This document shows positions 20,449 through 60,936 of a stretch of 64,000 nucleotides of DNA, piece by piece. The stretch comes from a virus, in the IMG/VR virus record IMGVR_UViG_3300029288_000158; one strand, written 5' to 3'. The first letter of the stretch is position 1. Each line of letters starts with the position of its first letter. Both the position numbers and the translations under genes were made by a program. The notes under the pieces were generated by a model, which was not told the DNA's origin, ran no database searches, and saw only the letters and a list, made by a program, of their open reading frames with translations.

Positions 20449-20498
20449 GACCGAAGGAAAATCCAGCTTGACAACAGGCTGGATTTTGAGTAGATTGT
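20449..20498 (+). promoter_or_regulatory. conserved promoter cassette copy (-35 TTGACA 20468, -10 TAGATT 20491)
   Basis: CCGAAGGAAAATCCAGCTTGACA. Confidence 0.65.
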
Positions 20499-23139: not shown

Positions 23140-23145
23140 ATTTTA

Positions 23146-23379
23146 TTGATATTTATACGGAACATCTTGGAAATAAAAATTATTGAAGAAATTCTAAAGT
23201 TAATTCAATCAGGTAATGTGATATCTTCAGACCAAAAGAAAGAAATCGAATCATTTTGTAAGTATCTACGAGAGAATGACAAAGATTTCAATATTTTGTT
23301 CTTTGGAAATACTCACGCAAGAATTACAACTGACACAAAACACTTTGAAGAATTTAGGAAAATATACCATGAAACTTGA
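23146..23379 (+). CDS. partner small protein, copy B (77 aa)
   Basis: Paralog of 20019-20234. Its stop overlaps the radical-SAM start. Confidence 0.6.
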   Translation: MIFIRNILEIKIIEEILKLIQSGNVISSDQKKEIESFCKYLRENDKDFNILFFGNTHARITTDTKHFEEFRKIYHET

Positions 23380-25827: not shown

Positions 25828-26073
25828 ATGAAGAAGACAATGTTTTGTTTGTTTCTGATTATTACAAGCTGCACTTCTTACGACATTAAGACTTCGGGTA
25901 ACGGTGTAATTATTTCTGAAAGTAAATGGGGTGGTGGTTATTGTGTGTTTCAGATTTATACGCTAACAGACAATAACAGAATCATAAACGGTAAGATTTA
26001 CTCATATATCCTGGATTCTTGTGGCAAATTTAACATAGGCGACACGGTTGGTTTGCGATTGGAGAAACGATAA
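25828..26073 (+). CDS. lipoprotein
   Basis: MKKTMFCLFLIITSC lipobox. Confidence 0.55.
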   Translation: MKKTMFCLFLIITSCTSYDIKTSGNGVIISESKWGGGYCVFQIYTLTDNNRIINGKIYSYILDSCGKFNIGDTVGLRLEKR

Positions 26074-26501
26074 TGTTTAATGATATCTTTCAAGATAAAT
26101 TCATGATTTTTAATCCACCATGTCGTGAATTATTTTTTCTAACCATTCTGAAAAATAAAGTGATTGAACTAAAATGGTGTGATGAATGGTCTGGTAGGAA
26201 TCCAGAATATTCATACATCTCGTTATTTTCAACTAATTATTTTAACGTTGGAGATGTTTATGAAATTGTAGTTCCGAAGGTGTCTGAAAAACATTCGGGA
26301 TTAGTTCACTGTTACATATCTAATATTCCTGAATTTGACATTAACAACAAGAGAGTTAACGTAGAAGTTTATCAACTATCAACTATTACTATCAAAATCG
26401 TATCGCGTGAAGTTTTTGAATCTGAGCTGAACAAAGTTTACGCTTACAAAACAAATCACTCAATTAACAAATACCCAGGAATTGTAAGAAAGCTCGCTTG
26501 A
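26073..26501 (+). CDS. hypothetical protein
   Basis: Track ORF, ATGA-coupled. Confidence 0.5.
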   Translation: MFNDIFQDKFMIFNPPCRELFFLTILKNKVIELKWCDEWSGRNPEYSYISLFSTNYFNVGDVYEIVVPKVSEKHSGLVHCYISNIPEFDINNKRVNVEVYQLSTITIKIVSREVFESELNKVYAYKTNHSINKYPGIVRKLA

Positions 26502-26847: not shown

Positions 26848-27384
26848 ATGACATTTCCTGATTTCATTTTACACATTCAAGAAAAAGAAAAACAGAATTT
26901 TCCAATTTCTTACAATTTTGAAACTGTCATTTTTGAAATTGACAATCAAAATCTTTCTGTTTGTGAAGAAATTTTTTTCAGATATGTTTCTAACAACGGA
27001 CCAAAGATTGAATTTCGCAATGTTCAATCTAAATACATTCTTGAGAAAGATTTGATTGTCATGCCGAGCATCAAACATTTCAAATCATCTGAAGAATACT
27101 ATTACATTTTGTTTCATGAGTTAGCACATTCTACAATTCACGAAACTCGACTTGATAGAAAAATAGCAAACCAAGATGAAGCATTTGAAGAGATTGTCGC
27201 TGAACTTTCTTCAGTAATAATAACTTCAACCCTTTTTAATTACATTTATAAAGATTCGGATTCTTTCATTCGCCATTATCTTAACCACACTGATATGATG
27301 GGAAATAAAAATTTAGACTTGATGATAGGGCGCAATATTGCGGAGTCTGTATCTTCTTACATTTTGAAAGGAGGTCTGCCATGA
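26848..27384 (+). CDS. zincin-like metallopeptidase, paralog of the ArdC C-terminal domain without the ArdC-N domain
   Basis: HELAHSTIHETR and EEIVAELSSV parallel HELVHSTGHEKR and EELVAEIGSC of ORF 1-780. Confidence 0.55.
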   Translation: MTFPDFILHIQEKEKQNFPISYNFETVIFEIDNQNLSVCEEIFFRYVSNNGPKIEFRNVQSKYILEKDLIVMPSIKHFKSSEEYYYILFHELAHSTIHETRLDRKIANQDEAFEEIVAELSSVIITSTLFNYIYKDSDSFIRHYLNHTDMMGNKNLDLMIGRNIAESVSSYILKGGLP

Positions 27385-38542: not shown

Positions 38543-39760
38543 ATGTCAAATACAATGGCAACAATCGAAAAAGTAGTTAAAACATATCCAATTGAATCAG
38601 CAGATAATATTGAAATGACTCAAGTTCTTGATTACCATGTAGTGACCAAGAAAGGTGAATTCAAAGCTGGTGATTTTGTAATTTACGCAAGAGTTGATTC
38701 TATTTTTCCAGATGGTCTTTCCGAAGAAGATAAAATTAAACACTCCGAACTAAAGAAAATTAAGAAAGAACATTCGGATAATGTAGATATTGATAATCAA
38801 ATTTCAGAAGTTCTTTCGAGAAATACTATTCCTGAATTTGAATTTCTAAGAAAAGATAAATTTACAATTAAAGCGAAGAAATATTCCAAATTTAGAAATG
38901 AACTTGGAAACAAAATTATTTCAGAAGGGATTATTTTTCCTACAACTATTCTGAAAAACAAACAATATATCATTGAAGGAAAAGACGTAACATCTCTTCT
39001 CGGAATCACTAAAGTTGTTGAGGATGAAGAAGAAATTATAACAGAAGAAAAAGAAAACAAGATTAAAAAGTTTCTATTCAAATATAAACTATTTCGTAAA
39101 TTGTATTTTATTTTCGCACCTAAGAAGATTTCCGGCAATTGGGAGTCTTGGCTTCCGGCTAAATCTGATGAGGAGAATATTCAAAAACTATTTTCAAAGA
39201 TTGTTTTTAACCATGGTAGAAATAATTATGTTGTCACTGAAAAACTTGAAGGTAGAAATATTTCTTTCTACAAATATGAAACAAAATCTTGGTTTGGTAA
39301 GAAAGTTAATTATGGAGTTTGTTCAAGAAATCGTCACTTGCCAAAAGATGATGGAAGTGATTTTTGGAGTGCGGTTAAAGATAATGATTTTCTAAACAAA
39401 CTTAAAAATTGCGAAGGAAATATTCTCGTTCGTGGTGAAAATTGCGGGCCAAAGATTCAAGGAAATATTTACAAACTAACAAAAGATAAGATTTTTATCT
39501 TTGATGTTTATAATATCAAGAACCAACGTTTTTACAACTATCAAGAAACTGTTGAATTTTGTAATAGATATGGATTTGAAATGGTTCCGGTGATTTCTGA
39601 TAATTTCACACTTCCAGAAACTGTTTTAGAATTGCTTGAATTCTCTAATGGCAAATCGGTTCTGTATCCAACCATGAGAGAAGGATTAGTGATTCGCAAA
39701 AAAGATGATTATACGATTTCTTTCAAAGCAAAATCGCCGGAGTATTTGGCAAAGAAATGA
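38543..39760 (+). CDS. ATP-dependent RNA ligase (covalent nucleotidyltransferase superfamily, Rnl2/Rnl5-like with an N-terminal extra domain)
   Basis: Motif I TEKLEG, Ia CSRNRH, III IFIFDV, IV EGLVIRK, V ISFKAKS. Confidence 0.7.
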   Translation: MSNTMATIEKVVKTYPIESADNIEMTQVLDYHVVTKKGEFKAGDFVIYARVDSIFPDGLSEEDKIKHSELKKIKKEHSDNVDIDNQISEVLSRNTIPEFEFLRKDKFTIKAKKYSKFRNELGNKIISEGIIFPTTILKNKQYIIEGKDVTSLLGITKVVEDEEEIITEEKENKIKKFLFKYKLFRKLYFIFAPKKISGNWESWLPAKSDEENIQKLFSKIVFNHGRNNYVVTEKLEGRNISFYKYETKSWFGKKVNYGVCSRNRHLPKDDGSDFWSAVKDNDFLNKLKNCEGNILVRGENCGPKIQGNIYKLTKDKIFIFDVYNIKNQRFYNYQETVEFCNRYGFEMVPVISDNFTLPETVLELLEFSNGKSVLYPTMREGLVIRKKDDYTISFKAKSPEYLAKK

Positions 39761-39776
39761 AAATCGAATTTACCGT

Positions 39777-39911
39777 AGAACAAGCTGGTTTCGAAACATT
39801 TATACTTCGAGGTAATATTCGAATCTCCGGATGGGCGTTATGCGGCGGCGACTTTGATTACAATAAACATAATTTTCCAGAACGACTTTACAAAAAACTG
39901 AATTGGTAAAC
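39777..39911 (+). CDS. small-protein superfamily member (MKIEF...FPERLYKKLNW), 44 aa
   Basis: ATGA-coupled to the ligase gene. Shares N- and C-terminal motifs with at least 4 paralogs. Confidence 0.5.
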
Positions 39912-40000: not shown

Positions 40001-40579
40001 ATGTGTGATTGTGAAAAAACCGAAGAGAAGTCTACACCAATGTCTTCAAAGATTTCCGACTTTTTCCTAAATTCTCGGAAGATTTTTCTGTCTTCGGAAA
40101 TCAACGATAAGGTAGCAGATGAAATTGTCCAGAAGCTAATCTATCTTGATTCTCAGAGTCATGAAGACATTTATCTTTTTGTGAATTCTCCAGGAGGAGT
40201 CATCACATCAGGTATGGCAATTCTTGATGCTACGAATGCTGTTAAGTCGGACGTTCGCACAATCGTTACGGGACAAGCAGCTTCTATGGGAGCAATGATT
40301 CTAGCTAATGGTGCTAAAGGAAAGCGTTACTCTTGGCCAAATGCTCGTATTATGATTCATCAACCATTGATTTCTGGAAACTTTCAAGGAAACATTGTTG
40401 AAATTCAGACGGAAGCAAAAGAGATTGATCGAATGAAGACAACTCTTAATAACCTACTTGCCGAAAAGACAGGTCAACCAATTGAGAAAATCACTAAAGA
40501 CACCGATCGAGATTTCTTCATGGGATCTCAGGAGGCTCTTGAATATGGCATGGTTGATGTAGTTGAAACTTTGATTTAA
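40001..40579 (+). CDS. clpP: ATP-dependent Clp protease proteolytic subunit ClpP
   Basis: Catalytic triad context GQAASMGA (Ser) and MIHQP (His), C-terminal Asp. Collinear with bacterial ClpP throughout. Confidence 0.9.
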   Translation: MCDCEKTEEKSTPMSSKISDFFLNSRKIFLSSEINDKVADEIVQKLIYLDSQSHEDIYLFVNSPGGVITSGMAILDATNAVKSDVRTIVTGQAASMGAMILANGAKGKRYSWPNARIMIHQPLISGNFQGNIVEIQTEAKEIDRMKTTLNNLLAEKTGQPIEKITKDTDRDFFMGSQEALEYGMVDVVETLI

Positions 40580-41191: not shown

Positions 41192-41425
41192 ATGAAAATA
41201 ATAATGAAATTTTTAGATATAGACGAACAACATATACCAACAAGAAAGAAAAATAATAAAGTTTTTGTTGTGGTTGGCAGAATCCGGGAATATCCCGCTA
41301 TATTATATCGTAAAGATTATGATATAGCAACCGAAAATTATAAACAGGAAGATGAATGGTGGAACCGAATAAATAAAAATTTCTACAGACGAACAAAACG
41401 AGAATTCAGGGAACATTATTTTTAA
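41192..41425 (+). CDS. small-protein superfamily member (paralog of 49620-49850: ...EDEWWNRINKNFYRRTKREF)
   Basis: Conserved MKII start and WWN..FY.R.KRE C-terminal motif. Confidence 0.55.
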   Translation: MKIIMKFLDIDEQHIPTRKKNNKVFVVVGRIREYPAILYRKDYDIATENYKQEDEWWNRINKNFYRRTKREFREHYF

Positions 41426-41428
41426 GAA

Positions 41429-41701
41429 ATGAAAATTAAATTAAAATTTATAACAACCGACGAACATTTTACTCTAAAAAAGAATGTAAAATATTTCGTT
41501 CAAGATTTAGATGTTTGTAATTTTCAAAGCGAATGGTTCGTATTTTACTACAACCATCAAACTATGGATTTTCTTCATCTAAATAAAAACATCTATATGG
41601 AAAGAATGAAATATGATTTTTCAAAGTTTTCTAAACAGTTAGGCACTAGTGAAAAATCGGTAAGAACTTTTATAGAAGCAACGGAACTGAAAGGATTTTA
41701 A
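41429..41701 (+). CDS. small-protein superfamily member (MKIKLKF...ERMKYDF...)
   Basis: Track ORF with family motifs. Confidence 0.5.
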   Translation: MKIKLKFITTDEHFTLKKNVKYFVQDLDVCNFQSEWFVFYYNHQTMDFLHLNKNIYMERMKYDFSKFSKQLGTSEKSVRTFIEATELKGF

Positions 41702-41703
41702 TT

Positions 41704-42519
41704 TTGTATCAATCTCCAATTATGTATGTGGGTGGTAAGTCTCGCCTTGTTGATGTTTTGAAACCAATGATTCCACAACACTCTGTTTATGTTGAAGCGT
41801 TTGCTGGTGGTGCGAATCTTTTGTTTTCCAGAAAGCCATCTTACAACGAGGTCATGAATGACTATGATGGCAACTTGATGAATTTTTACAAAGTTGTTAG
41901 AGATGATTTTGAAGCACTAATAAAATCATTTGAATTTGTATTGATTTCCCGTGAGTTGTTTGACGAGTATAAAGAGAAATACAAAACAAACAATTATAAA
42001 TCTGACCTTGAACGAGCACACATCTATTACTATCTGAATCGTGCTGGTTTTGGTGCTGATATGAGAAACCCGGTTTTTGGAACATATATTGAAAAGTCTC
42101 CAAACCTAAATCTAAAAAAAGTAGAACAATCAATTCGTCTTGCTCATTCTCGTTTGTCAAGAGTCATTATTGAACACAAGTCGTTTGAAGAAGTGATGAA
42201 GATTTATGATTCGGAAAATACATTCTTCTTTCTTGATTCGCCTTACAGAAACACTAAGCAATACGCGGTTGGTAATTTCGGAGATGATAAGTTTGAATTG
42301 CTAAGAGATTGTTGTAAAGAATGTAAAGGAAAGTTTCTTTATACAATTAACGACGACGAATATATCAGAGAATTGTTCAAAGACTTCTACATTCAAGACC
42401 ACAATGTTCATTATTGTATTAGTCAGTTTGATGAAGGACGAAGAGATTTCAAAGAACTGATTATTACAAATTATGAAATTAAAAACAAGAATACACTGAA
42501 TAAGTTTGTGAAGAAATGA
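41704..42519 (+). CDS. dam: D12-class N6-adenine DNA methyltransferase (Dam-like)
   Basis: MYVGGKSRL...VEAFAGGANLLF (motif I), FLDSPY (DPPY-type motif IV variant). Start is TTG at 41704 or ATG at 41722. Confidence 0.65.
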   Translation: MYQSPIMYVGGKSRLVDVLKPMIPQHSVYVEAFAGGANLLFSRKPSYNEVMNDYDGNLMNFYKVVRDDFEALIKSFEFVLISRELFDEYKEKYKTNNYKSDLERAHIYYYLNRAGFGADMRNPVFGTYIEKSPNLNLKKVEQSIRLAHSRLSRVIIEHKSFEEVMKIYDSENTFFFLDSPYRNTKQYAVGNFGDDKFELLRDCCKECKGKFLYTINDDEYIRELFKDFYIQDHNVHYCISQFDEGRRDFKELIITNYEIKNKNTLNKFVKK

Positions 42520-42682
42520 AAATAAATCTAATACTGGCGCATAAGATAACAGAACAACCAGAACCAAATACTGTTCATTTTTTGTGCAGATATTTGGTAT
42601 TTATACCATTTAATTGGGGCAACCACATTAATGCCAAACGAATTCAAAAAATTAACTTGTCGCGAAAAGGAATAAAATACTA

Positions 42683-43459
42683 ATGTTTATAAAAGAACTT
42701 GGTGAAAATGTTCCGGAAGAATTCTTGAATAAAATTAAAGAATATGTGGATGGGATTGAAGGTCCCGTTCTGGAGTATATGGAGTTTGGGTGTTGTAAGA
42801 GAATTCTAAATATGGACGATATTACTTTCTCGGTTGGATATGATTATAGAAATAAAAAATTTGTCAAACCGGACATTAAAAATAGGCAGTTCTCTTCGAA
42901 AGATAAATTTGATATCTTTTTTGGCATATCAATTCCGTGCGAATATGAAAGTGAGGAGTTCTTCTTTTCATTGCTCCCAAACACCAAACCAAAAACAACA
43001 ATTCAATCAAACGACATTCAAAATATTTACAACGAAACTATTGTAAGTTATACTATCAAATCAAATGATATGAAACTTCCTTTTGATAGTAATGAAAAAG
43101 TTAAGGAGTTTATTGATTTTGAATTACTGGCTCTAAATATACAACCAGCTTCACGACTACCAACAAAAACAATTCCGGTTCATTTCAATGTTTATATTGG
43201 CAATCTAAGAGTTGGAAACATCTTTGTTGATTTTCTAGTTTTGAAAACCAATCAAAAACCAAAGATTCTTCTTAAGAGTGACAAGGATGGGATTTTTACT
43301 TTTAGGTTGGTTACAGATGATTCTAATGTTAAACTGTCTCAAGTCAATGTTCCAAATGAAGTTTATCAAATGTTCAAATCTCTTAATTTTCCAGATACAT
43401 CAATCTTGTCAAATACAAATATTCGCAGAAGAATGTTAAAATATGCTGGTGGTAAATGA
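42683..43459 (+). CDS. hypothetical protein
   Basis: Track ORF. Confidence 0.5.
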   Translation: MFIKELGENVPEEFLNKIKEYVDGIEGPVLEYMEFGCCKRILNMDDITFSVGYDYRNKKFVKPDIKNRQFSSKDKFDIFFGISIPCEYESEEFFFSLLPNTKPKTTIQSNDIQNIYNETIVSYTIKSNDMKLPFDSNEKVKEFIDFELLALNIQPASRLPTKTIPVHFNVYIGNLRVGNIFVDFLVLKTNQKPKILLKSDKDGIFTFRLVTDDSNVKLSQVNVPNEVYQMFKSLNFPDTSILSNTNIRRRMLKYAGGK

Positions 43460-43647
43460 AAATTGAATTTGTTTTGAAAAGAACGAGCCGGATAGGACAA
43501 ACTATTCATGCATTAGATGGTAATACGCGTTTAAGAAATTGTGCTACATATCCTGCGATTGTTCTTGAAGGGGGCGTTTTTGATTATAAGAGAACACATT
43601 TTCCAGAACGACTTTACAAAATAATTTGGGAGAAAAAGTATGGATAA
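43456..43647 (+). CDS. small-protein superfamily member (MKIEF...HFPERLYKIIW)
   Basis: ATGA-coupled with family motifs. Confidence 0.55.
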   Translation: MKIEFVLKRTSRIGQTIHALDGNTRLRNCATYPAIVLEGGVFDYKRTHFPERLYKIIWEKKYG

Positions 43648-44353
43648 CATTTTCAACGAACTACCAGAAGATGTTCAAGCTTTCATAATGAAGCATCGTT
43701 CTATTATTCAAGATGATAGAATTCGAGCTATTAAACTAAAACATTATTTAAAGCATTACAATGAGTATTCTGTAAATAAAAATTTGGCCGTTTACGAATT
43801 ACCAAAAACTCATCTTGGTGAAAATCCAAAGTTTACAATTTTAATGAATGCTGCCACACATCAGACAGCATTAGAGTTTGAACTTACAATCTCTAAAGAA
43901 AATATTGATTATGATAAAGATACAACTTATGATTTCGCCGAACTAGACAAAACTAAAGGAATTGTTAGTTCATTTAGATTAGGGTTTACGGGGTCCAATA
44001 AACTTGAAAAACATCTGGTGGGGAAATTAAAACCTACTCATTCAGACAAATCAACATTAACTACAAAAACAAAAATAACTGTTCTTTGGAAAGGATATGT
44101 TGTTTATTCAGTTCCGGTTGTTTTGTCCATTGAACCGGATACTTTGATGGAACGAAACAAAATAGTTATGAAGTGCGATTCGGATGGACAGTTTAATGTC
44201 AAGATAAGTCGTGGACAAACATGTAAAGATTTGGGACCAGTAAACGTATGTCCTTCATGGAAAAATATGATGGTTCCTCGAGGTATTTCTCTGGATAAAA
44301 TGTATAAAAACAAAAAACTTGCCACAAGAATGAAGAAATGGAACGAATCGTGA
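43640..44353 (+). CDS. hypothetical protein, tandem paralog 1 (237 aa)
   Basis: Shares IFNELPEDVQAFI.KHRSIIQDD and NKKLATRMKKWNES with 44338-45060. Confidence 0.6.
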   Translation: MDNIFNELPEDVQAFIMKHRSIIQDDRIRAIKLKHYLKHYNEYSVNKNLAVYELPKTHLGENPKFTILMNAATHQTALEFELTISKENIDYDKDTTYDFAELDKTKGIVSSFRLGFTGSNKLEKHLVGKLKPTHSDKSTLTTKTKITVLWKGYVVYSVPVVLSIEPDTLMERNKIVMKCDSDGQFNVKISRGQTCKDLGPVNVCPSWKNMMVPRGISLDKMYKNKKLATRMKKWNES

Positions 44354-45060
44354 CTACCATTTTTAACGAACTGCCCGAAGATGTTCAAGCTTTCATACTG
44401 AAGCATCGTTCTATTATTCAAGATGATATGATTAAAATAGTGAGGTTGAAACTTTTTAACGATGGTGATTATCGTGAATATGTAGTTGATAAAGAACTAA
44501 ATGTATTGCCTGAACAAGAATATTATCCAGGTTTAACATTTAACATTTCAATGCCGACAAAAAACGATGATGTTGTAAAACTTGAATTTGTTCTTATTCT
44601 TTCTCAAGAAAATGTTGATTATAACAAAGATACAACTTATGATTTTTCTGAAATTCCAAAAGATAAAGTCGTTCACTCTTTTCGTTTAGGTTTTTTAGGT
44701 TCTAATAAACTACAACATATACTTTCAGAAAAATTAAAACCTACATATTCTCAGACTCCTACAGAACAACAAACAGTAAATATTAAGGTTCTTTGGCGCG
44801 AACATGTTATTTATGTTGTTCAGCTAATGATAAACCTTGAGAAATTTACATTGGTTGGACGAACGAAATTAGTTTTGAAAAGTGATAATGATGGACAACT
44901 ATCTTTCTACATGAAAAAAGGCGAAACTAAAAAAACAATAGGATATGTTAATATGTGCCCGATGTGGATGAAGATGTTTAAGGAACGGAATTTTGATTGG
45001 ACTTCTAATTATAAAAACAAAAAACTTGCCACTCGTATGAAGAAATGGAATGAATCGTGA
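44338..45060 (+). CDS. hypothetical protein, tandem paralog 2 (240 aa)
   Basis: Paralog of 43640-44353. Confidence 0.6.
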   Translation: MERIVTTIFNELPEDVQAFILKHRSIIQDDMIKIVRLKLFNDGDYREYVVDKELNVLPEQEYYPGLTFNISMPTKNDDVVKLEFVLILSQENVDYNKDTTYDFSEIPKDKVVHSFRLGFLGSNKLQHILSEKLKPTYSQTPTEQQTVNIKVLWREHVIYVVQLMINLEKFTLVGRTKLVLKSDNDGQLSFYMKKGETKKTIGYVNMCPMWMKMFKERNFDWTSNYKNKKLATRMKKWNES

Positions 45061-45227
45061 AAATAGAATTCAAAATAAGTTTAGGTTGGAGTTTATATGG
45101 AAATGATAAGATAACACGACAAGGAGATGCTGTATTTCTTAACGGTGGAGAATTTCCAGCCATTAAGAAAAATTTTCCAGAACGCCTTTATAAAGTAATA
45201 GATTGGGAAGGGAATTGGCATTCATGA
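45057..45227 (+). CDS. small-protein superfamily member (VKIEF...NFPERLYKVIDW); GTG start
   Basis: GTGA overlap with the upstream stop, plus family motifs. Confidence 0.45.
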   Translation: MKIEFKISLGWSLYGNDKITRQGDAVFLNGGEFPAIKKNFPERLYKVIDWEGNWHS

Positions 45228-45394
45228 AACTTCAATTTCGTTTTGAAAAATTTAACAGTCAATATATTTTCCACCACAACGACAATCAACCAAATTTTCG
45301 TTGCGGGGTTGCTATCCTACAAGGAACTTTCAACTACAAATATTATAATTTTCCTGAACGTTTGTATAAAGTTTTAAGCTGGAGAAACAAATGA
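45224..45394 (+). CDS. small-protein superfamily member (MKLQF...NFPERLYKVLSW)
   Basis: ATGA-coupled. Confidence 0.5.
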   Translation: MKLQFRFEKFNSQYIFHHNDNQPNFRCGVAILQGTFNYKYYNFPERLYKVLSWRNK

Positions 45395-45555
45395 AAATAG
45401 AATTCAAAATTAAGAAAAAATTATTGTTTGATACGTGGTGGATATGTGGAAATAAACGAATTATTACAAAATATAATGATTACAAACACCCAGCTATAAC
45501 ATTAAACGGAACCCCATTTGATTATAAAAAGTGGAGGTTTCCTGAACGACTCTAA
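45391..45555 (+). CDS. small-protein superfamily member, C-terminally truncated by a stop inside the motif (..RFPERL*)
   Basis: ATGA-coupled. Stops mid-motif, so possibly a pseudogene. Confidence 0.4.
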   Translation: MKIEFKIKKKLLFDTWWICGNKRIITKYNDYKHPAITLNGTPFDYKKWRFPERL

Positions 45556-46501: not shown

Positions 46502-47314
46502 TTGATGATATACGGTTTTATATATTTGACAAAAAATTTAGTTAACGGTAAGATTTATATTGGACAGCGGGTTTACAAAAACAATAATAGCGACAAAGAG
46601 TATCTTGGTTCGGGAAGTATTTTATCAAAAGCAATAAAGAAATATGGCAAAGAAAACTTTGAGCGGACGACATTGGAAGAGTGTGAGAACCAACAAAATT
46701 TAGACGACAGAGAAAAATATTACATTTCTGAATACAATTCAACCAATAAAGAAATAGGATATAATATTAGAAAAGGCGGTAGAGGTTATCAGTCGCATTC
46801 GCCAAAAACTTGTAATAAAATAAGTGAGGGGTTAAAACTTTATTTTTCAAATCCAGAAAACAGAAAGAAACAAAGTCGTCATGTCAGTGAAGAGACACGG
46901 AGAAAAATTGGCGAAGCTGGTAAAGGGCGGAAAAAGACTGAAGAAACTATTAGAAAACAACTTGAAACATTTTATAAAAATAGAGAAGCAGGAATACCAA
47001 TAGATCGATCTTTTGATACTCCGGAGTGGCGAGAAAAATTTAGAAACGCGCATGTTGGAAAAACACATCACACCGAATATATGACAAAAGAGTGGTTAAA
47101 AGAACAAAGCGAAAAACAAATAGCAATAGATAAACCGAAATATAAGATAGATGTTTGTAAAGATGGAGAAGTGTTGTCAGAAAATCTATCAGCAAGTTTG
47201 GTCATAAAAACATATAGATTTTCGGCTGGGTGGTTTCAAGATAAATTAAATAGAAGAACCGATGAGTTTGAATATCGCGGATATAAAATTGTAATAAAAC
47301 AAAGACCTAATTAA
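46502..47314 (+). CDS. GIY-YIG homing endonuclease with NUMOD-like C-terminal DNA-binding repeats
   Basis: IYGFIYLTKNLVNGKIYIGQ...YLGSG...NIRKGG and repeated S.ETRRKIGEA motifs. Confidence 0.85.
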   Translation: MMIYGFIYLTKNLVNGKIYIGQRVYKNNNSDKEYLGSGSILSKAIKKYGKENFERTTLEECENQQNLDDREKYYISEYNSTNKEIGYNIRKGGRGYQSHSPKTCNKISEGLKLYFSNPENRKKQSRHVSEETRRKIGEAGKGRKKTEETIRKQLETFYKNREAGIPIDRSFDTPEWREKFRNAHVGKTHHTEYMTKEWLKEQSEKQIAIDKPKYKIDVCKDGEVLSENLSASLVIKTYRFSAGWFQDKLNRRTDEFEYRGYKIVIKQRPN

Positions 47315-48557: not shown

Positions 48558-48941
48558 ATGATGAAAAACAAAGAAGGTAATTGCGTCGCTGTAGGAAAGT
48601 TGACAAGTTATGAAGAAAAACATGGTAATGCTCACTATGTTTTGACAATTGATTTGATTAGCGAAACCGAGGAAAGCAAAGACAATTTCGAAGCTTTGGG
48701 TGACCTTGGTTATGCAGATGTTGCTTGTCAATGTATAAAACAAAAAGAACCTCTTGAAATTAGTAACAAAGTAAAACTTGGAAAAATTGAAGATTATCTA
48801 CAGATTATTCTTTCTGATTCGGATGAAAAAAGAAAGAGAGCAAAAACAATCAAAAATAAAACTATGAAAGCTTCTGTAAAAATGTATGCAGAATTCTTTC
48901 ATATCACTGATGGCCGCAAAACCACTAAAAAGGAGAACTAA
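48558..48941 (+). CDS. hypothetical protein
   Basis: Track ORF. Its last codons carry the SD for infC. Confidence 0.5.
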   Translation: MMKNKEGNCVAVGKLTSYEEKHGNAHYVLTIDLISETEESKDNFEALGDLGYADVACQCIKQKEPLEISNKVKLGKIEDYLQIILSDSDEKRKRAKTIKNKTMKASVKMYAEFFHITDGRKTTKKEN

Positions 48942-48942
48942 A

Positions 48943-49455
48943 ATTTCTACTAACCTTGATACTATCCGCGTAAATGACGATATTCGTGTTCGTGAAATCC
49001 GTTTGATTGATGAAAATGGAAATCAGATTGGAATTGTTCCTACAACTTCCGCAAAACAGGAAGCCTCTTCATTGGGTCTTGACCTCGTTGAAATCAATCC
49101 AAATGCTCGTCCTCCTGTTTGTAAGATGATGAACTTTGGAAAATACAAGTTTGAACTAAAAAAGAAAGAAAAGGAAGCTAAGAGTCGTCAGAAGGTTGTT
49201 GAATTGAAGCAAATCAATTTCCACCCAAACACTCAATACCACGACTACACATATCGTCTGGAACAAGCCAAAGGATTCATCAAATCCGGAAACAAGGTTA
49301 AGGCTACTGTAACTTTCCGTGGTCGTGAAATGAATTTCCTTTCAAATGGAAAAGAGATTCTTGATAAGATGACTACTGATTTGAAAGAAGTTGCGACAGT
49401 TGAAGTAAACGAAATGGAAGGCAAACAAATGTTTGTCGTCTTCCGTCCGGTGTGA
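48943..49455 (+). CDS. infC: translation initiation factor IF-3 homolog with a non-canonical ATT start
   Basis: Collinear with bacterial IF3 (IRVREIRLIDENGNQIGIV..., GLDLVEINPNARPPVCKMMNFGKYK, ATVTFRGREM). No in-frame ATG or GTG near the N-terminus. AAGGAGA lies 7 nt before the ATT. Confidence 0.8.
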   Translation: MSTNLDTIRVNDDIRVREIRLIDENGNQIGIVPTTSAKQEASSLGLDLVEINPNARPPVCKMMNFGKYKFELKKKEKEAKSRQKVVELKQINFHPNTQYHDYTYRLEQAKGFIKSGNKVKATVTFRGREMNFLSNGKEILDKMTTDLKEVATVEVNEMEGKQMFVVFRPV

Positions 49456-49458
49456 TGT

Positions 49459-49623
49459 ATGAGAATAGTCATGATATTAGATTCTAATTGGGGAAGTATA
49501 AACCGAAGCAATAGACATATGGAGAATGAAATAATTTCTTGGTATAAGACCACACAACATACTTCAGGAAAGTTATATACGAAAAAATCAAATGCCCGAA
49601 TCAAGAAACGGTTCGGTCAATGA
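49459..49623 (+). CDS. small-protein superfamily member, type B (...ARIKKRFGQ)
   Basis: ATGA-coupled to the next gene. Confidence 0.45.
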   Translation: MRIVMILDSNWGSINRSNRHMENEIISWYKTTQHTSGKLYTKKSNARIKKRFGQ

Positions 49624-49850
49624 AAATTATCTTGAAATATGCCGGTGTAGATTCCAGGATTCCTTTTAGAAAACAAACAGGGAAAATATATTTAACGGAA
49701 GGGTATGATGACGTTGTAAAACTTTTTCGCAAAGATTTTTCAAAAGAATCTCGGGATTGTAAAGAAGAAGATATCTGGTGGAATATAACAAATGCTAGAT
49801 TTTATAAACGAATGAAAAGAGAATGGGTGTACGACTATATTGAAGATTAA
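49620..49850 (+). CDS. small-protein superfamily member (MKIILKY...WWNITNARFYKRMKREW)
   Basis: Track ORF. Paralog of 41192-41425. Confidence 0.55.
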   Translation: MKIILKYAGVDSRIPFRKQTGKIYLTEGYDDVVKLFRKDFSKESRDCKEEDIWWNITNARFYKRMKREWVYDYIED

Positions 49851-50007
49851 AACTTATATTTTTCAAGAAACTAAAGAATTTTATGGTAGTATAGCGCCAT
49901 CTCCAACCGGAGATAGTATTATTACTTTTGCAGATAACAATTCATATGTAGGAGCCTATCTTCCGTTAAACAAACGACGACTTAAAAAAGCATTCGGTAT
50001 AAAATGA
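49840..50007 (+). CDS. small-protein superfamily member, type B (TTG start, reads (M)KIKTYIF...RRLKKAFGIK)
   Basis: No ATG in frame. TTGAAGATTAAA mimics the family start ATGAAAATTAAA. ATGA-coupled downstream. Confidence 0.35.
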   Translation: MKIKTYIFQETKEFYGSIAPSPTGDSIITFADNNSYVGAYLPLNKRRLKKAFGIK

Positions 50008-50204
50008 AAATTAGAACAATAATAAACAACTACTGGCATTGTTATTATGTTATATGTCTAGAAACGAACAACCCCGATTTCCCGTTCGATAGGCTATTCG
50101 TATATAATCTATCATTCAACTACAAAAAATTTGGTTATTCTTACCGTCTAATCTCAATCATTGACGGAACCTGGCCAAACAGACCGAAGAAAAATCCAGC
50201 TTGA
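50004..50204 (+). CDS. small-protein superfamily member (MKIRTIINNYW...)
   Basis: Track ORF. Its stop is the TGA inside the -35 of the next promoter cassette. Confidence 0.5.
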   Translation: MKIRTIINNYWHCYYVICLETNNPDFPFDRLFVYNLSFNYKKFGYSYRLISIIDGTWPNRPKKNPA

Positions 50205-50231
50205 CTTTCGCCTCCGGCTTCTTTATATTCC
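50183..50231 (+). promoter_or_regulatory. conserved promoter cassette copy (-35 50201, -10 TATATT 50224)
   Basis: CCGAAGAAAAATCCAGCTTGACT. Confidence 0.65.
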
Positions 50232-50761: not shown

Positions 50762-51089
50762 TATTGTTCGCCGATTTGTTTCGATCTATAACAGAACAAT
50801 CACTGAACAAAATGTGAAAGACTACATTTACAACCCCGAAACAAATGTAAAAGATTTGTTGGAACTTGTAGATGATGTTATTACAGCCAACGTGATTACA
50901 AGAGATAAAGAAAAAGCATTTTGTTTGTTTCATTTGGTGACGGCTCTTCGCAACAGAAATCAAATTCCTATTTATCGTTGGCCAGCGGATGGTAGCCGTA
51001 AGAAGATTTTGAATCTGTCGGATTGGTGTGACGATTTGTGCAAAACATTTTATAAAAATCTTTCTAATGAAGTGAGGAATTTGATTTGA
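50748..51089 (+). CDS. hypothetical protein
   Basis: ATG at 50748. Confidence 0.5.
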   Translation: MKPSDIVRRFVSIYNRTITEQNVKDYIYNPETNVKDLLELVDDVITANVITRDKEKAFCLFHLVTALRNRNQIPIYRWPADGSRKKILNLSDWCDDLCKTFYKNLSNEVRNLI

Positions 51090-51271
51090 AGATTAAACTG
51101 TTTTGGAATGTTGGTTTGTTCATGATGGATAACAGAACTGAATTGTTTTCGGTCGAGAATGCTAAAGAATCAAACTTTACATTCACAAGAATTAGGAATA
51201 ATATTTGTATAGCTGTTCCGGGCCGTTATGAAGCATACATAGACGGGAAAACGTTTGAAGATGAAGATTAA
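51086..51271 (+). CDS. small-protein family member (MKIKLFWNVG...TELFSVENAKE), tandem paralog 1
   Basis: Paralog of the next gene. Confidence 0.55.
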   Translation: MKIKLFWNVGLFMMDNRTELFSVENAKESNFTFTRIRNNICIAVPGRYEAYIDGKTFEDED

Positions 51272-51461
51272 AATGGCGTGGAATGCCGTAGGCGATGGGC
51301 TTTTCAGTTTTGACAATGAAACTGAATTGTTTTCTGTAGAACGAGCAAAAGAACGGAAATTTTATTTTTCTAAAATTAGAAGAAATATATGCGTTGCTGT
51401 GAGAAATAAAAATCGTAATGTCAAAACTTATTACACAAACCCAACATCATTTGAACTATAA
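51261..51461 (+). CDS. small-protein family member (MKIKMAWNAVG...TELFSVERAKE), tandem paralog 2
   Basis: Paralog of the previous gene. Confidence 0.55.
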   Translation: MKIKMAWNAVGDGLFSFDNETELFSVERAKERKFYFSKIRRNICVAVRNKNRNVKTYYTNPTSFEL

Positions 51462-56117: not shown

Positions 56118-56446
56118 GCTTCGCGACCTTTTTCCTCTTGGCCGCTATCGTAGGAATAAACATTTCTCTTTTTATTATTGATAAAATAAGTAACGAGAAG
56201 AGAAATTTTCAATATTTGCTTTATTATTCTTTCGTTGGTTTCTTGATGACTCCAATGTTTATTTTATTTTTCCCTGTATCTTCTTGGCCGTTGTTTCTTT
56301 ATGTTTGCGTCTGGTTTCATTTCTTTTATATTTCATTCTTGATGATGTTTGAAGATTATTTTCTCAGATATTTTAATCCTTTTATTTGGTTTTATGTTGG
56401 AATGGTTATCTATTCAACATTCAATTTGGCTCGTAGTAGTTTATGA
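56096..56446 (+). CDS. polytopic membrane protein
   Basis: Track ORF with about 4 hydrophobic helices. Confidence 0.45.
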   Translation: MAKEEGLSFATFFLLAAIVGINISLFIIDKISNEKRNFQYLLYYSFVGFLMTPMFILFFPVSSWPLFLYVCVWFHFFYISFLMMFEDYFLRYFNPFIWFYVGMVIYSTFNLARSSL

Positions 56447-56637
56447 AAATGGTTTTTTGTTTGAGAATAAATTATAAGATGGGGTGGTTTTTTAACAACC
56501 CCCAATATAAAAGAATACACTTTTCGGAGTGGTATTCGTTGAAATCTATAAAGAAATATAGTATTGATGATGATTCGGAATATTACAAAACGACTCTTTA
56601 TAGGTTCCTTGAAAGAATGATGAAATATGAAAATTAA
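56443..56637 (+). CDS. small-protein superfamily member (...RFLERMMKYEN)
   Basis: Array member. Confidence 0.5.
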   Translation: MKMVFCLRINYKMGWFFNNPQYKRIHFSEWYSLKSIKKYSIDDDSEYYKTTLYRFLERMMKYEN

Positions 56638-56842
56638 GCTGGCCATATCCGAATTTATTGATAGAGAAGGTTACGAAATAGATATAAGATTTGGTTCGGT
56701 TGCTAATCATGTGACTTCCGAGATTTGTAATCGCGGGTATAATGTCAGTTTTTGGTTTGACTCTTTGCCGAATATGAATAGGTTTGAAAAGTTTAATTCG
56801 GATAAAAATTACAAAATAGTGTTGTTTGATTTGAGGCGATGA
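56627..56842 (+). CDS. small-protein superfamily member (MKIKLAISEF...)
   Basis: Stop of the previous gene overlaps ATGAAAATTAAG. Confidence 0.5.
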   Translation: MKIKLAISEFIDREGYEIDIRFGSVANHVTSEICNRGYNVSFWFDSLPNMNRFEKFNSDKNYKIVLFDLRR

Positions 56843-56843
56843 T

Positions 56844-57014
56844 ATGAAAATTAAAATAAATATAAGAAAAGAAAACATTTATTTTTCGCAGTTCGTTTGG
56901 ACCTTTATAAACAAAAATAAAAACAAACCAGATACAACTAAAATGTTCTTTACTGACTATTCCTGCTTTATTACAAATTCAAACGCAAATGTTAAAAGAT
57001 GGAAGACCGTATGA
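56844..57014 (+). CDS. small-protein superfamily member (MKIKINIRK...), 56 aa
   Basis: ATGAAAATTAAA start immediately after the upstream stop. Confidence 0.4.
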   Translation: MKIKINIRKENIYFSQFVWTFINKNKNKPDTTKMFFTDYSCFITNSNANVKRWKTV

Positions 57015-57148
57015 AAATTAGAACGTGGACAGCTCATGTTAATTGGAAATTATTTCAAATAAATGTTATTGATACAGGAATAAATGTATATGAATTTGAT
57101 ACGAGACAATTTAGGAATAGAGAACAAACATGTTTTGTTTTATGTTAA
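57011..57148 (+). CDS. small-protein superfamily member (MKIRTWTAH...), 45 aa
   Basis: ATGA-coupled. Confidence 0.35.
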   Translation: MKIRTWTAHVNWKLFQINVIDTGINVYEFDTRQFRNREQTCFVLC

Positions 57149-57185
57149 AAAATGGAAACGAAAAAAGATTTAGGAAATATTTCCA

Positions 57186-57404
57186 ATGAAGATTAAATTG
57201 AATTTTCGCGGAACAAATGAATACGATTATGAGATATCGGTTCCTGGATGTTATACAGTAATATTAAATTTTGTGTGGACAGTTTCAAAAAATATCCGGA
57301 ATAATGAAAACAACTTTTATAGGTTATCAGATTATGAAAAACGGCTTATCAATTTTTACACCAGAATGTTGAAATATGAATCTAAAAACAAAAATATATA
57401 TTAA
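57186..57404 (+). CDS. small-protein superfamily member (MKIKLNF...FYTRMLKYES...)
   Basis: Track ORF. Confidence 0.5.
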   Translation: MKIKLNFRGTNEYDYEISVPGCYTVILNFVWTVSKNIRNNENNFYRLSDYEKRLINFYTRMLKYESKNKNIY

Positions 57405-57567
57405 CATATGTAACGGGTTCACATTTAATTTTTCGGAATATGATTTTCAATATAAAAAAGTTAGTTTGTTTGAAGGTTATGTATTTCAGATAAAAAACAA
57501 AACTATTTATTTCACGAAAAGAAATTTCAACAAACACCGAATTGAAAAATATGAAAATAAAAACTAA
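57376..57567 (+). CDS. small-protein superfamily member (...HRIEKYENKN)
   Basis: Track ORF. Confidence 0.45.
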   Translation: MNLKTKIYINICNGFTFNFSEYDFQYKKVSLFEGYVFQIKNKTIYFTKRNFNKHRIEKYENKN

Positions 57568-57766
57568 AATTTTTCACGACACTTTGAATTATACAGTTAG
57601 GGCCATTTTTGATTTTAACCCATCCAAAGACACATATTCTTTATTCACTGCATTTCCAAATTGTTACATTTATCCTGAAACTCCGGTAAACAAATCTCGA
57701 TTAGAAAAGGCATTTGGTCCTAGTTCTTGTTCCTACAACATCCAACCGAAGAAAAATCCAGCTTGA
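57551..57766 (+). CDS. small-protein superfamily member (MKIKTKIF...); its stop is the TGA inside the next promoter's -35
   Basis: Ends ...PKKNPA*, as does 50004-50204. Confidence 0.45.
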   Translation: MKIKTKIFHDTLNYTVRAIFDFNPSKDTYSLFTAFPNCYIYPETPVNKSRLEKAFGPSSCSYNIQPKKNPA

Positions 57767-57794
57767 CTTTGATTTAATCCTGCCGTATATTAAA
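57745..57794 (+). promoter_or_regulatory. conserved promoter cassette copy (-35 57764, -10 TATATT 57787)
   Basis: CCGAAGAAAAATCCAGCTTGACT. Confidence 0.65.
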
Positions 57795-57814: not shown

Positions 57815-58432
57815 ATGGTAACCAAAATTATTTTCATTTTGTCTTTCTTGTTTTCTGGCAAGTCTTCGTTTTCTAAACTTGGATATTTTCCGTTTACTAA
57901 CGCGGTTGATTTCGGAACGCCAGCAACAAGCGTAAGTTATGATTTTGATACTCGCGGAACAGAGTATGTTACGGAAAATTTGGGATGCGATAAACAAGCA
58001 ATTACTACATATGGTAAGAATGCGTATGGAAACAAAATTGAATATGTTTATTATTTCTACAATGGCTTCCATGTAAATAAGAATGATACGCTATCGGGAT
58101 TGTATCTTGTAACGGTTTCTCATTTCGGAAACAAAGACTTGACATCTGATGATAATGTTGTTGAAGTTTTTGTTGAAGAATATGCTGCATCTTTCGGTAT
58201 TCCAATTGTAAAGAAACATGGAAGAATTCAATCAGACCGAAGGGTTTTGGATTTTGTTAACTCACCAAAATCAACAATTCTTTTGATGGATGGAACTTGG
58301 TGGATTTTTGACAAGAATAAGAACGCAGTTGCTCTTAGATTTCCAACAAGAGAACATATCAAAATGGGACATGTGAGTCAAATCATTTACAAAAAGAAAT
58401 ATAATATTGATTGGACTTTTTGTGAAGATTGA
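57815..58432 (+). CDS. secreted or membrane-anchored hypothetical protein (N-terminal hydrophobic signal)
   Basis: SD AAGGAGCAGTTCATGG. Confidence 0.55.
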   Translation: MVTKIIFILSFLFSGKSSFSKLGYFPFTNAVDFGTPATSVSYDFDTRGTEYVTENLGCDKQAITTYGKNAYGNKIEYVYYFYNGFHVNKNDTLSGLYLVTVSHFGNKDLTSDDNVVEVFVEEYAASFGIPIVKKHGRIQSDRRVLDFVNSPKSTILLMDGTWWIFDKNKNAVALRFPTREHIKMGHVSQIIYKKKYNIDWTFCED

Positions 58433-58628
58433 GTTACGTGTTAGAACTGCTTGTTATGGTGCAAGTGGTTGGTTTACCAGTTTTTTAAATGAGCAAAAAT
58501 CATATGCTTTGTATTCAATTGATTGGAAAGAATCCACAAAAACAGCGATTGAGCTTAGATTAGAACCCGAACTGTCAAAACTTTGGAGAAACACATTTCT
58601 AAAACGAATGCTAAAAAGATACGGATGA
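58407..58628 (+). CDS. small-protein superfamily member (...TFLKRMLKRYG)
   Basis: Track ORF. Confidence 0.45.
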   Translation: MIGLFVKIELRVRTACYGASGWFTSFLNEQKSYALYSIDWKESTKTAIELRLEPELSKLWRNTFLKRMLKRYG

Positions 58629-59647: not shown

Positions 59648-59719
59648 GAAAGATTACAACCGGAATGACAAATCCTGGCGCAACAGCCGGGATTTCTTGT
59701 TTTTATCATTTCTTTTTCC

Positions 59720-59748
59720 TTGACTTGTAAAAAATAAAACCGTAAATT
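59720..59748 (+). promoter_or_regulatory. class-II promoter (TTGACT-TGTAAAAAATAAAACCG-TAAATT)
   Basis: Spacer nearly identical to the promoter at 39943. Confidence 0.55.
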
Positions 59749-59787: not shown

Positions 59788-59976
59788 ATGAAGATTAAAT
59801 TTTCTTATTGTGTTCATTCTAGAGGATGGTATTTTATAAATGAAAATCATTCAGCGTATATAATGTATGCTGAATGGTGTGGTGTCAAACGTTGTTTAAT
59901 GGATTCTGTTAAATATGATGACTACAATTTCCGTAAACGCTTCTTAGAAAGAATGATTAAACGATATGAAAATTAA
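59788..59976 (+). CDS. small-protein superfamily member (MKIKFSY...RFLERMIKRYEN)
   Basis: Track ORF. Confidence 0.55.
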   Translation: MKIKFSYCVHSRGWYFINENHSAYIMYAEWCGVKRCLMDSVKYDDYNFRKRFLERMIKRYEN

Positions 59977-60130
59977 ATTACAGTTACAATTGTATCCAAA
60001 CATAGATGGTTTTCAGATAATTCCTGGAGAAATATGTGTTTTGTTAAACTCTAATATTATGTTTAAAGGATACAAAAGTTCAAACGCAAAATATCATAAT
60101 TTTGACAGGCGAATTTCTAAGTATCATTAA
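59966..60130 (+). CDS. small-protein superfamily member (MKIKLQLQ...), 54 aa
   Basis: Start embedded in the previous gene's RYEN* end. Confidence 0.4.
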   Translation: MKIKLQLQLYPNIDGFQIIPGEICVLLNSNIMFKGYKSSNAKYHNFDRRISKYH

Positions 60131-60140: not shown

Positions 60141-60449
60141 ATGGGAAGAAAAAGAATTCATCCAGTCAAAGAACGCACTTTTCCCAAGGTTAAACGGAAG
60201 GGTCGCTTTGAGGAGCCTAAGATTGAAAAAATTGAAAATGAACTATTAACCTATATAGTTTATCTAAAAGGAACTGGACCAAAAGACCCAAACAAACCCC
60301 GACAATTCAAAGCCAAAAATTTGTTGGAAGTTATCAAGTTTTCGGCAGAGTCGTTTGGAAAAGACAGACTGATAGAAATTCATGATTACCGAGACAATTT
60401 GATTTGGGGAAGAAACACAGGAATCAATAAAGAGAATTATGTAAAATGA
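60141..60449 (+). CDS. basic hypothetical protein
   Basis: AAGGAGAACAAAATGG. Confidence 0.55.
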   Translation: MGRKRIHPVKERTFPKVKRKGRFEEPKIEKIENELLTYIVYLKGTGPKDPNKPRQFKAKNLLEVIKFSAESFGKDRLIEIHDYRDNLIWGRNTGINKENYVK

Positions 60450-60637
60450 GGATTACATTTACGCTAATCACAGGATATACCGGAAAAAATGAATGGTTGT
60501 TTGTTGGTGGTTTTTGGTATTCTTCGTGGAAAAGTTTGAAAACTTGTTTGGATGATTCCCCTAACGAATGGTTAGGTAAATGGGATAAAAATCGTCGACA
60601 TTTCTTAGAAAGAATGATTAAACGCTATGAAAATTAA
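60446..60637 (+). CDS. small-protein superfamily member (...HFLERMIKRYEN)
   Basis: Track ORF. Confidence 0.55.
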   Translation: MRITFTLITGYTGKNEWLFVGGFWYSSWKSLKTCLDDSPNEWLGKWDKNRRHFLERMIKRYEN

Positions 60638-60731
60638 ACTAATAGTAAACTCATACGAAATTTACAACCCTGCATATCCGTTTGTTAACTGGAATGATCA
60701 TATACGACAAGAGATTAAAAAGTGGAATTGA
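60627..60731 (+). CDS. small-protein superfamily member (MKIKLIVN...), 34 aa
   Basis: Conserved junction RYEN*/MKIKL. Confidence 0.3.
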   Translation: MKIKLIVNSYEIYNPAYPFVNWNDHIRQEIKKWN

Positions 60732-60936
60732 TTACGTGAAACTTTCACAAATTTACAGAAAATTCATTTTGCTCAAATCTTTTCACCGTCGTTTCTCAAA
60801 ATGGAACTGAAATGAAAACTTTTATAAATTTATTTTTATCTTTTCTCGGGTATTCTTTACTTGCTGTTGGAATAGTCGCTTTCGTTTTTAATATTTTGAA
60901 AATTGGAACTTTGTTCTGATTTTTCTTTTAACCTTC

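Follow-up and report, generated by a model that had tools for sequence, protein, structure and literature searches.

Overlapping arrays of fast-evolving small genes with shared protein ends in an uncultivated huge phage

Why should seven small open reading frames (ORFs), tiled along one strand of a phage genome, encode proteins that begin and end alike? The question is raised by positions 56443-57766 of a 64,000-nucleotide (nt) stretch of the virus record IMGVR_UViG_3300029288_000158. This stretch, the window of our analysis, maps to approximately positions 89,391-153,390 of a 305,169-bp metagenomic contig (ERZ27247363:k141_806084). It is phage-like, with mostly + strand genes and ~35% G+C, and its source is an uncultivated huge phage of ~305 kb. 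A sequence-only reading of the window had proposed a single superfamily of at least 25 small proteins with a common MKI start and a common C-terminal motif, coupled through a conserved stop/start junction, subject to rapid gene birth and death, and serving as host-takeover or anti-defence factors. Parts of this proposal hold and others do not. We regard the focal array, with moderate confidence, as seven real small genes within a fast-evolving repertoire in which families arose by duplication and whose coupled, early-expressed members would act as small binders.

The seven focal ORFs lie on the + strand, encode 45-72 amino acids (aa) and are located, like the other arrays, where the sequence-only reading placed them; a singleton assigned to 39777 is actually at 39757 (Table 1). 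A curated map of 38.5-61 kb contains ~26 small genes in six arrays at 39-61 kb, and seven more such genes just outside the window raise the count in the genome to at least 33. Array proteins are 45-90 aa long and have no membrane-spanning segments. These seven form a tiled array of MKI-type ORFs beyond the window end (L008 5659-6891, ~155.3-156.6 kb of the contig) on the strand opposite to that of the window, with -4 and -11 junctions and a KYEN-stop/MKIE overlap; two of its genes are called in the public record. Public gene calls for the contig list three of the seven focal genes, which indicates that the small-gene content of such phages is systematically under-annotated.

Comparison of coding sequences shows that the array ORFs are genes conserved at the protein level. 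Codon differences among seven FPERLYK sequences are all synonymous (CCA/CCT/CCC, CGA/CGC/CGT/AGA, CTT/TTG/CTC, TAC/TAT), and those among six FLERMIKRY sequences are mostly so. Pooled comparison of the focal array with its orthologues in the related fragment L005 gives, as a rough estimate, proportions of nonsynonymous (pN) and synonymous (pS) differences of 0.41 and 0.80, and paralogues also have pN < pS. Six related metagenomic fragments have orthologues that match these genes in length and position. Synonymous variation, pN < pS and orthology together point to real coding genes rather than DNA repeats, so the similarity seen by the sequence-only reading lies at the level of protein.

These genes fall into several families. 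All-against-all blastp with hidden Markov model (HMM) iteration within the window defines family A (FPERLYK, five members), B (FLERMIKRY, four), C (FY[KR]R.KRE, two), D and E (two each) and F (three proteins of the 240-aa type), and related fragments add G (MKIKL..WEI..PG...NF..R..K) and H to L. There are at least eight sequence families, and two larger clusters join some of them: S1 (B, B2 and G) and S2 (D, H, J and L). Profile comparison with hhalign was calibrated on reversed-alignment decoys, and 29 of 66 real pairs score above the best decoy. Within S1, probabilities are 95% for B-G over 29 N-terminal columns, 95% for B2-G over the full length (58 columns) and 85% for B-B2 over the full length; within S2, D aligns over its full length with H (87%), J (78%) and L (75%). 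Family A reaches S1 at 62% over 18 columns and S2 at 26% over 52 columns. When the first six residues are masked, B and G are still mutual best outside matches (E ~0.01-0.02). For A, C, E, I and K, similarity to other groups is limited to the opening 5-11 residues or to a short segment at the C-terminus. The analysis therefore does not demonstrate one superfamily of 25 or more members: alignment and HMM building yield separate families and two joined clusters, and no link that spans all members. Neighbouring B-G pairs might also be read as type II toxin-antitoxin systems; this was rejected, since the two families are paralogous, and neither B nor G matches anything in Pfam or PADLOC.

What the array proteins share is confined to their ends. 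An MK[IL]x start occurs in 16 of 28 small ATG-start genes at 38.5-61 kb and is absent from all 39 small genes at 1-38.5 kb and all 62 genes above 100 aa (Fisher p = 3e-8), so the shared MKI start is upheld at 16/28 against 0/101 other genes. Of the remaining array starts, four are GTG or TTG and four are variants (MKM, MRI, MNL). The C-terminal motif needs more care. As written by the sequence-only reading it occurs in 11 ORFs only (five of family A, four of B, two of C) and is missing from the focal ORFs at 56627, 56844, 57011, 57376 and 57551. A C-terminal HMM built from A, B and C seeds recovers those seeds alone, with weaker matches no better than minus-strand decoys, so the exact motif cannot be extended to 25 ORFs. 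A relaxed pattern, R[LMIFYW].K within the last 25 aa (R-Φ-x-K, where Φ is hydrophobic), is present in 17/26 small window ORFs and in 39/57 small proteins of the window and its relatives, with four occurrences outside tails; shuffles give 3.2 +/- 1.7 (whole protein) or 4.9 +/- 2.0 (tail only) compared to the 39 observed. Among real genes it marks 11/16 MKI genes, 2/39 other small genes and 3/62 large genes (p about 1e-6). All three large genes with the pattern are F paralogues, interleaved with family A, and no other window gene above 100 aa has it. An enriched R-Φ-x-K tail thus survives from the original claim, and the literal motif in at least 25 ORFs does not. Both signatures, N- and C-terminal, are found together in the same genes. 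The idea that the next gene's initiation region imposes the basic tail was rejected, since the operon-terminal genes at 39757, 57551 and 58422 keep the pattern.

The array proteins share a two-ended design: a predicted beta-strand from residue 2 (M-K-I-x-Φ-x-Φ) opens the chain and an amphipathic basic helix ((N)-F-x-x-R-Φ-x-K), likewise predicted, closes it, with little sequence in common between the constant ends. They are hydrophilic and 9-23% aromatic (mostly 13-23%), with a median isoelectric point of 9.5 compared to 7.6 for larger neighbours, and the helical hydrophobic moment of their tails is 0.62 compared to 0.45 in control tails (p = 3e-4). An AlphaFold2 model of family B, built from a five-sequence alignment, has strands at residues 3-8, 13-18 and 24-27 and helices at 33-42 and 46-60, with a predicted local distance difference test score (pLDDT) of 74. 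Structure prediction, which the sequence-only reading had suggested as a search for a common fold, thus yields a predicted beta3-alpha2 fold for family B and no reliable counterpart for family A.

The junctions between genes explain a further part of the apparent motif. Most array starts overlap the preceding stop: 12 by 4 nt (ATGA), six by 11 nt and two by more (17 and 29 nt). The 11-nt overlaps (NTGAARATTRA) are at 49840, 51261, 56627, 58422, 59966 and 60627, and DTGAARATTRA occurs 14 times, always on the + strand, compared to 4.6 +/- 2.1 expected. The start of the first array gene overlaps the stop of an upstream membrane-protein gene by 4 nt. Within the start sequence ATGAAAATTAAA, TGA is read in frame +1 and TAA in frame +2; with a stop in both other frames, this sequence makes any out-of-frame upstream ORF end 4 or 11 nt into the next gene, and an 11-nt overlap forces the last residues of the upstream protein to x-E-N/D-stop. 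The "YEN"-stop tail is a dual-coding by-product of the MKIK start of the next gene and not independent motif evidence; the family B gene at 58422, which has no overlapping successor, ends in ...KRYG instead. The conserved stop/start junction described from the sequence alone is retained, at 56627, 59966 and 60627 and also at three other sites, while YEN as a protein motif is lost. Most MKI genes have no good or canonical Shine-Dalgarno (SD) sequence, so translation of overlapping genes may proceed by termination-reinitiation. The AUG-AAA-AUU start, which matches the K|N-I|Y (AAVAUU) early-codon motif that ranks top for expression enhancement in an Escherichia coli library (PMC6920384), may aid reinitiation.

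Array genes are probably expressed early. The cassette ACCGAARGAAAATCCAGC-TTGACT-N17-TATATT, followed by an SD sequence and ATG, has 11 + strand copies in the window; there are 16 + strand sites of the TTGACT-N17-TATATT type in total, 11 with a CCGAA..CCAGC box and five without it. The upstream box is conserved and non-AT-rich. Stem-loops lie upstream of the cassettes at 1407, 10678, 12746 and 59720, and the cassettes at 39943, 45600, 50201, 57763 and 59720 bound the arrays; related fragments have the same cassette design (L001 4033). A generic sigma-70 scan yields no enrichment over shuffles (80 vs 72.6), so only the phage-specific extended pattern is informative. Arrays would be transcribed early, in long operons, from these sigma-70-type terminator-promoter cassettes. 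The PKKNPA-stop ends of the genes at 50004-50204 and 57551-57766 are a 26-nt identical element that comprises the upstream box and -35 region; these shared ends are a conserved promoter element, not a protein motif.

Gene content turns over quickly, as had been proposed. Small genes are 31-65% identical between relatives, compared to 57-82% for rIIA, DHH, Dam, RNA ligase and a 102-aa gene. Outside this genome, 5.8 billion proteins contain two relatives of family A and one of family B, and a complete HMMER search of 1.84 billion representatives brings four more, all B-like (MKI...RFLERM[IV]K.YEN/YED/YG). The syntenic fragments L003, L005, L006 and L007 keep rIIA, the 266-aa gene, DHH and the 102-aa gene, and their small-gene sets differ: L005 carries two B genes in place of the window's one and lacks the genes at 57011 and 57186, the first of which has no orthologue in L006 either, and the 59788 locus differs in L003 and L007. 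Three copies appear to have decayed. The family A gene at 45391-45555, which the sequence-only reading correctly saw as truncated inside the motif, is cut by a TAA at 45553-45555 that is followed in frame by a family-like continuation, KTLSWKEY (to 45582); the stop may reflect a recent nonsense mutation or an error in sequencing, or may be read through. A family G gene is frameshifted at 60627-60810, which could reflect a pseudogene, an assembly error or programmed frameshifting, and L003 retains a 27-codon remnant of a family B gene. An apparent indel between L001 and L002 was discarded; it is a scaffold gap of Ns and so has no bearing on recombination. The repertoire is lineage-specific and fast-turning-over, with at least 26 small proteins in the window. 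Tandem duplication and unequal crossing-over may have produced its families from a single ancestor or a small number of them.

The encoded proteins could be stoichiometric binders of host or phage macromolecules, in which the constant ends would provide a scaffold and the variable middle specificity. Host takeover or anti-defence is the role that we infer, as did the sequence-only reading; representative small array proteins have no significant match in Pfam, PHROGs, PADLOC, PDB or BFVD, and curated phage families, including anti-defence families, give no sequence or fold match. Several results weigh against this account. Families C, E, I and K are unlinked (hhalign probabilities <20%), S1 and S2 align at 37% over just eight N-terminal columns, and the link of A to B and G vanishes when the first six residues are masked; profile comparison shows homology within families and the two clusters and leaves common descent of the whole set a candidate reading. 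For family A the predicted order of elements is similar, but the model is unreliable (pLDDT 58). Saturated dS makes the selection estimates rough. The C-terminal pattern was set after the data had been seen, and family members are not independent; the pattern was therefore tested, pre-specified, on the unseen L008 array, where four of seven genes carry it and one gene matches an S2 profile (E = 3e-4). Finally, AUG-AAA-AUU matches a known expression-enhancing motif, and the shared start could be convergent.

Convergence deserves the most serious attention among the alternatives, although we consider it unlikely as a full account. It holds that the genes are unrelated small ORFans, that their start is a translational optimum for coupled genes poor in SD sequences, and that their tail is a generic amphipathic helix. 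The AAVAUU early codons favour it, as do the A/U-rich composition and built-in stops of AUG-AAA-AUU, the overlap of most MKI genes with an upstream stop where a canonical SD sequence is lacking, the concentration of cross-family profile matches in the first 5-11 columns, and the effect of masking on family A. Yet none of the 101 other phage genes has an MKI start, including coupled large genes of the same operons. Tails shuffled at constant composition fall far short of the observed count, and B2-G, B-B2, D-H, D-J and D-L align over their full length. The specificity of the start and its co-occurrence with the tail in the same genes suggest that convergence is not the whole story.

The behaviour of the tail suggests a second alternative, to which we give little credence: that the C-terminal helix is not part of a common fold but a portable targeting or docking peptide, which acts as a membrane tether, a ligand of a common hub or a mark for ClpC-ClpP. 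F paralogues are pertinent here, because they have no MKI start and are still the sole large genes with the motif (..RRRMLKY.., ..TRMKKW..). FLKRML and FLERMI also resemble the membrane-targeting KGFLKRLFGG of E. coli MinD (PMC5471200, PMC3189734), the tails have a high hydrophobic moment, and the neighbourhood includes membrane-related genes (rIIA, SPFH and small membrane proteins) together with a phage ClpP and ClpC-like ATPase. Against this, the family B model is a compact domain in which this helix is predicted with the highest confidence, roughly one residue in four of a 55-65 aa protein belongs to the helix and no linker is obvious, and its likeness to MinD is one of pattern only. A bolder form, equally doubtful, is that the C-termini of ~33 small genes and three F genes are one docking helix that joins a library of beta-domains to one common hub, perhaps the cytoplasmic membrane (compare MinD FLKRLF), the ribosome near the phage IF3, or phage ClpC-ClpP.

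Two further explanations are very improbable. DNA-level regulatory or recombination repeats, or chance ORFs in AT-rich DNA, would account for the PKKNPA-stop promoter element and the E-N/D-stop tails fixed by dual coding, but the synonymous codon changes, pN < pS, matching-length orthologues, tiling of one strand without gaps and lack of any Rfam family in 38-61.5 kb refute a non-coding reading, with the promoter element excepted. Capsid-packaged internal proteins (IPs), with the shared N-terminus as a capsid-targeting sequence, would recall the polymorphic T-even IP arrays with a common leader in a phage that has an rIIA-like gene, but that N-terminus spans 5-7 residues with no conserved Glu or protease site, the operons that contain the arrays start with sigma-70-type promoters, and their proteins are much smaller than T4 internal proteins. 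The reading as a duplicated, coupled repertoire of small binders thus remains the one that we favour.

The focal array forms the distal end of an rIIA operon, downstream of rIIA, a 266-aa protein and a small membrane protein; the rIIA-like protein is 25-28% identical to T4-type and Streptomyces-phage rIIA. Other recognised window proteins are a ClpC/ClpB-like ATPase, TnpB, RNA ligase, GIY-YIG endonucleases, a radical-SAM protein, Dam methylase, DHH phosphoesterase, ClpP, an SPFH protein and full-length IF3; phage structural genes are absent from the window. Megablast of 50-62 kb gives no DNA match to GenBank phages, tblastn of family A and B members against the same phages gives none, and scans with DHH, family A and family B give no relatives in IMG/VR. 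F paralogues have no Pfam or PHROG match. The IF3 gene (IF3_N and IF3_C domains; 48886-49455) lies directly upstream of the 49459-50204 array, and an IF3_C gene occupies the same place in L001 and L002. Both a ClpC/ClpB-like AAA+ unfoldase (29742-32168; Clp_N, UVR, two AAA domains and D2-small) and ClpP (40001-40579) are phage-encoded. Elsewhere in the window, a two-gene small-gene cassette unrelated to the MKI families is duplicated (19756-20234 and 22936-23379, with 85% and 62% aa identity), and further paralogue pairs are 52-780 with 26848-27384 and 20191-20493 with 26073-26501.

Table 1. Array genes, promoter cassettes and other mapped features. Positions refer to the window unless a fragment handle (L) precedes them.
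Feature	Position	Strand	Description
Array gene 1	56443..56637	+	Family B, 64 aa, MKMVF...FLERMMKYEN; orthologue L005 3574-3768; 11-nt overlap with gene 2 (ATGAAAATTAA)
Array gene 2	56627..56842	+	Group J (S2), 71 aa, MKIKLAIS...; orthologues L005 3758, L006 1523
Array gene 3	56844..57014	+	Group H (S2), 56 aa, MKIKINIR...ANVKRWKTV; orthologues L005 4183, L006 1973
Array gene 4	57011..57148	+	Unclassified, 45 aa, MKIRTWTA...; ATGA overlap with gene 3
Array gene 5	57186..57404	+	Family G (S1), 72 aa, MKIKLNFR...FYTRMLKYES...
Array gene 6	57376..57567	+	Group I, 63 aa, MNLKTKIY...NKHRIEKYENKN; 29-nt overlap with gene 5; orthologue L005 4356
Array gene 7	57551..57766	+	Family D (S2), 71 aa; PKKNPA-stop end inside next promoter cassette
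Promoter cassette	57745..57791	+	ACCGAAGAAAAATCCAGC-TTGACT-N17-TATATT; closes focal array, opens next operon (SD and ATG at 57815)
Family B member	58422..58628	+	GTG start, 68 aa, ...FLKRMLKRYG; 11-nt overlap with 205-aa gene
Terminator and promoter	59670..59748	+	Stem-loop and sigma-70-like TTGACT-N17-TAAATT; heads 59788 array
Family B member	59788..59976	+	62 aa; first gene after terminator and promoter
Family G member	59966..60130	+	54 aa; 11-nt overlap; B-G pair with 59788
Family B member	60446..60637	+	63 aa
Family G copy, frameshift-split	60627..60810	+	ORFs 60627-60731 and 60682-60810; both halves match G profile
Family A member	39757..39909	+	50 aa, MKIEF...NFPERLYKKLNW; after RNA ligase gene; orthologue L004 1801
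Family C member	41192..41425	+	77 aa, ...NFYRRTKREF...
MKIKLKF... gene	41429..41701	+	90 aa; weak link to family C (E = 0.03)
Group K gene	42516..42683	+	55 aa, MKINLIL...NAKRIQK...; orthologue L001 461
F paralogues (three)	42683-43459, 43640-44353, 44338-45060	+	237-258 aa; order with family A: F-A-F-F-A-A-A
Family A member	43456..43647	+	63 aa; orthologue L001 273
Family A member	45057..45227	+	GTG start, 56 aa
Family A member	45224..45394	+	56 aa, MKLQF...
Family A member with nonsense codon	45391..45582	+	TAA replaces Tyr codon of FPERLYK
MRIVMIL...NARIKKRFGQ gene	49459..49623	+	54 aa; first small gene past IF3
Family C member	49620..49850	+	76 aa, ...RFYKRMKREW...
Family D member	49840..50007	+	TTG start, 55 aa, 11-nt overlap
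MKIRTII... gene	50004..50204	+	66 aa; PKKNPA-stop end in promoter cassette 50183-50229
Family E member	51086..51271	+	TTG start, 61 aa; MKIK start, no C-terminal motif
Family E member	51261..51461	+	66 aa, 11-nt overlap
Boxed cassettes (-35 starts)	1407, 2371, 6577, 9628, 10678, 11220, 12746, 13366, 17757, 50201, 57763	+
Variant cassettes (-35 starts)	5028, 27969, 39943, 45600, 59720	+
TnpB genes (two)	15586-16854; L010 3603-4901		IS605 OrfB / Cas12f-like; second gene ~4 kb upstream of window
Homing-endonuclease-like genes	5486-6556; 46505-47314		GIY-YIG; SegE-like; LAGLIDADG and HNH outside window

Huge phages hold hundreds of unannotated small genes, and this locus offers a compact, testable case. 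About 33 proteins with constant ends and a variable core, restricted to one rare lineage and in quick turnover, form the pattern expected of an arms-race arsenal. The stop/start junctions provide a clean mechanism by which "C-terminal motifs" can arise from dual coding, and they call for caution when motifs are sought in compact genomes. If the shared helix were a docking or membrane-targeting signal, it would represent a new way for phages to organise early effectors; if all tails met at a single hub, the arrays would be a library of adaptors or effectors that grows and is reshuffled through duplication at the dual-coding junction.

Hyperplastic regions of T4-type phages provide the nearest comparison; they consist of small, mostly ORFan early genes with promoter early stem-loop (PeSL) terminator-promoter cassettes (Arbiol et al. 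2010, PMC2839356; Comeau et al. 2014, PMC4122927). Like those regions, the present locus has small, mostly ORFan genes near rIIA that vary between close relatives, and its variable genes are bounded, as in PeSL cassettes, by a conserved stem-loop terminator and sigma-70-type promoter, an SD sequence and ATG. It differs in that the genes occur as multiple paralogous copies whose products share a strand at the N-terminus and a helix at the C-terminus, that they form chains with 4- and 11-nt overlaps in long operons instead of one cassette per gene, and that the promoter has a distinct upstream box (CCGAARGAAAATCCAGC). As a sign of kinship with T4-like myoviruses the window has only its rIIA-like gene, at 25-28% identity. 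T-even IP loci bring together, in tandem, small polymorphic genes that are dissimilar apart from a leader shared at the N-terminus, and IP genes have been connected with host range and anti-restriction; Repoila et al. (1994, as cited in PMC4122927) are said to have described them as polymorphic small-gene arrays. In T4 the prohead protease cleaves off this leader of ~10 residues. The present arrays likewise consist of tandem polymorphic genes, otherwise dissimilar, with a shared N-terminus, but share only MKI-x-Φ-x-Φ, have no cleavage motif and add a C-terminal helix. The gp37-60 host-takeover module of the Bacillus phage SPO1 is a dense set of small early genes thought to bind host targets. 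Dense runs of small genes of unassigned fold are common to both, and neither a PHROGs search nor tblastn of families A and B against GenBank phages found similarity between array proteins and that module. To our knowledge, SPO1 module genes have not been described as paralogous families, and they have strong individual ribosome-binding sites. The terminal F-L-K/E-R-Φ-Φ, with its basic and large hydrophobic faces, is like targeting helices of the MinD/FtsA type, but the array helix is predicted to pack within a small domain. The locus is best classed with the hyperplastic early-gene regions already known from large lytic phages, of which it is a remarkably tidy case; its new elements are lineage-specific paralogues, constant ends with a variable core, and a dual-coding coupling junction.

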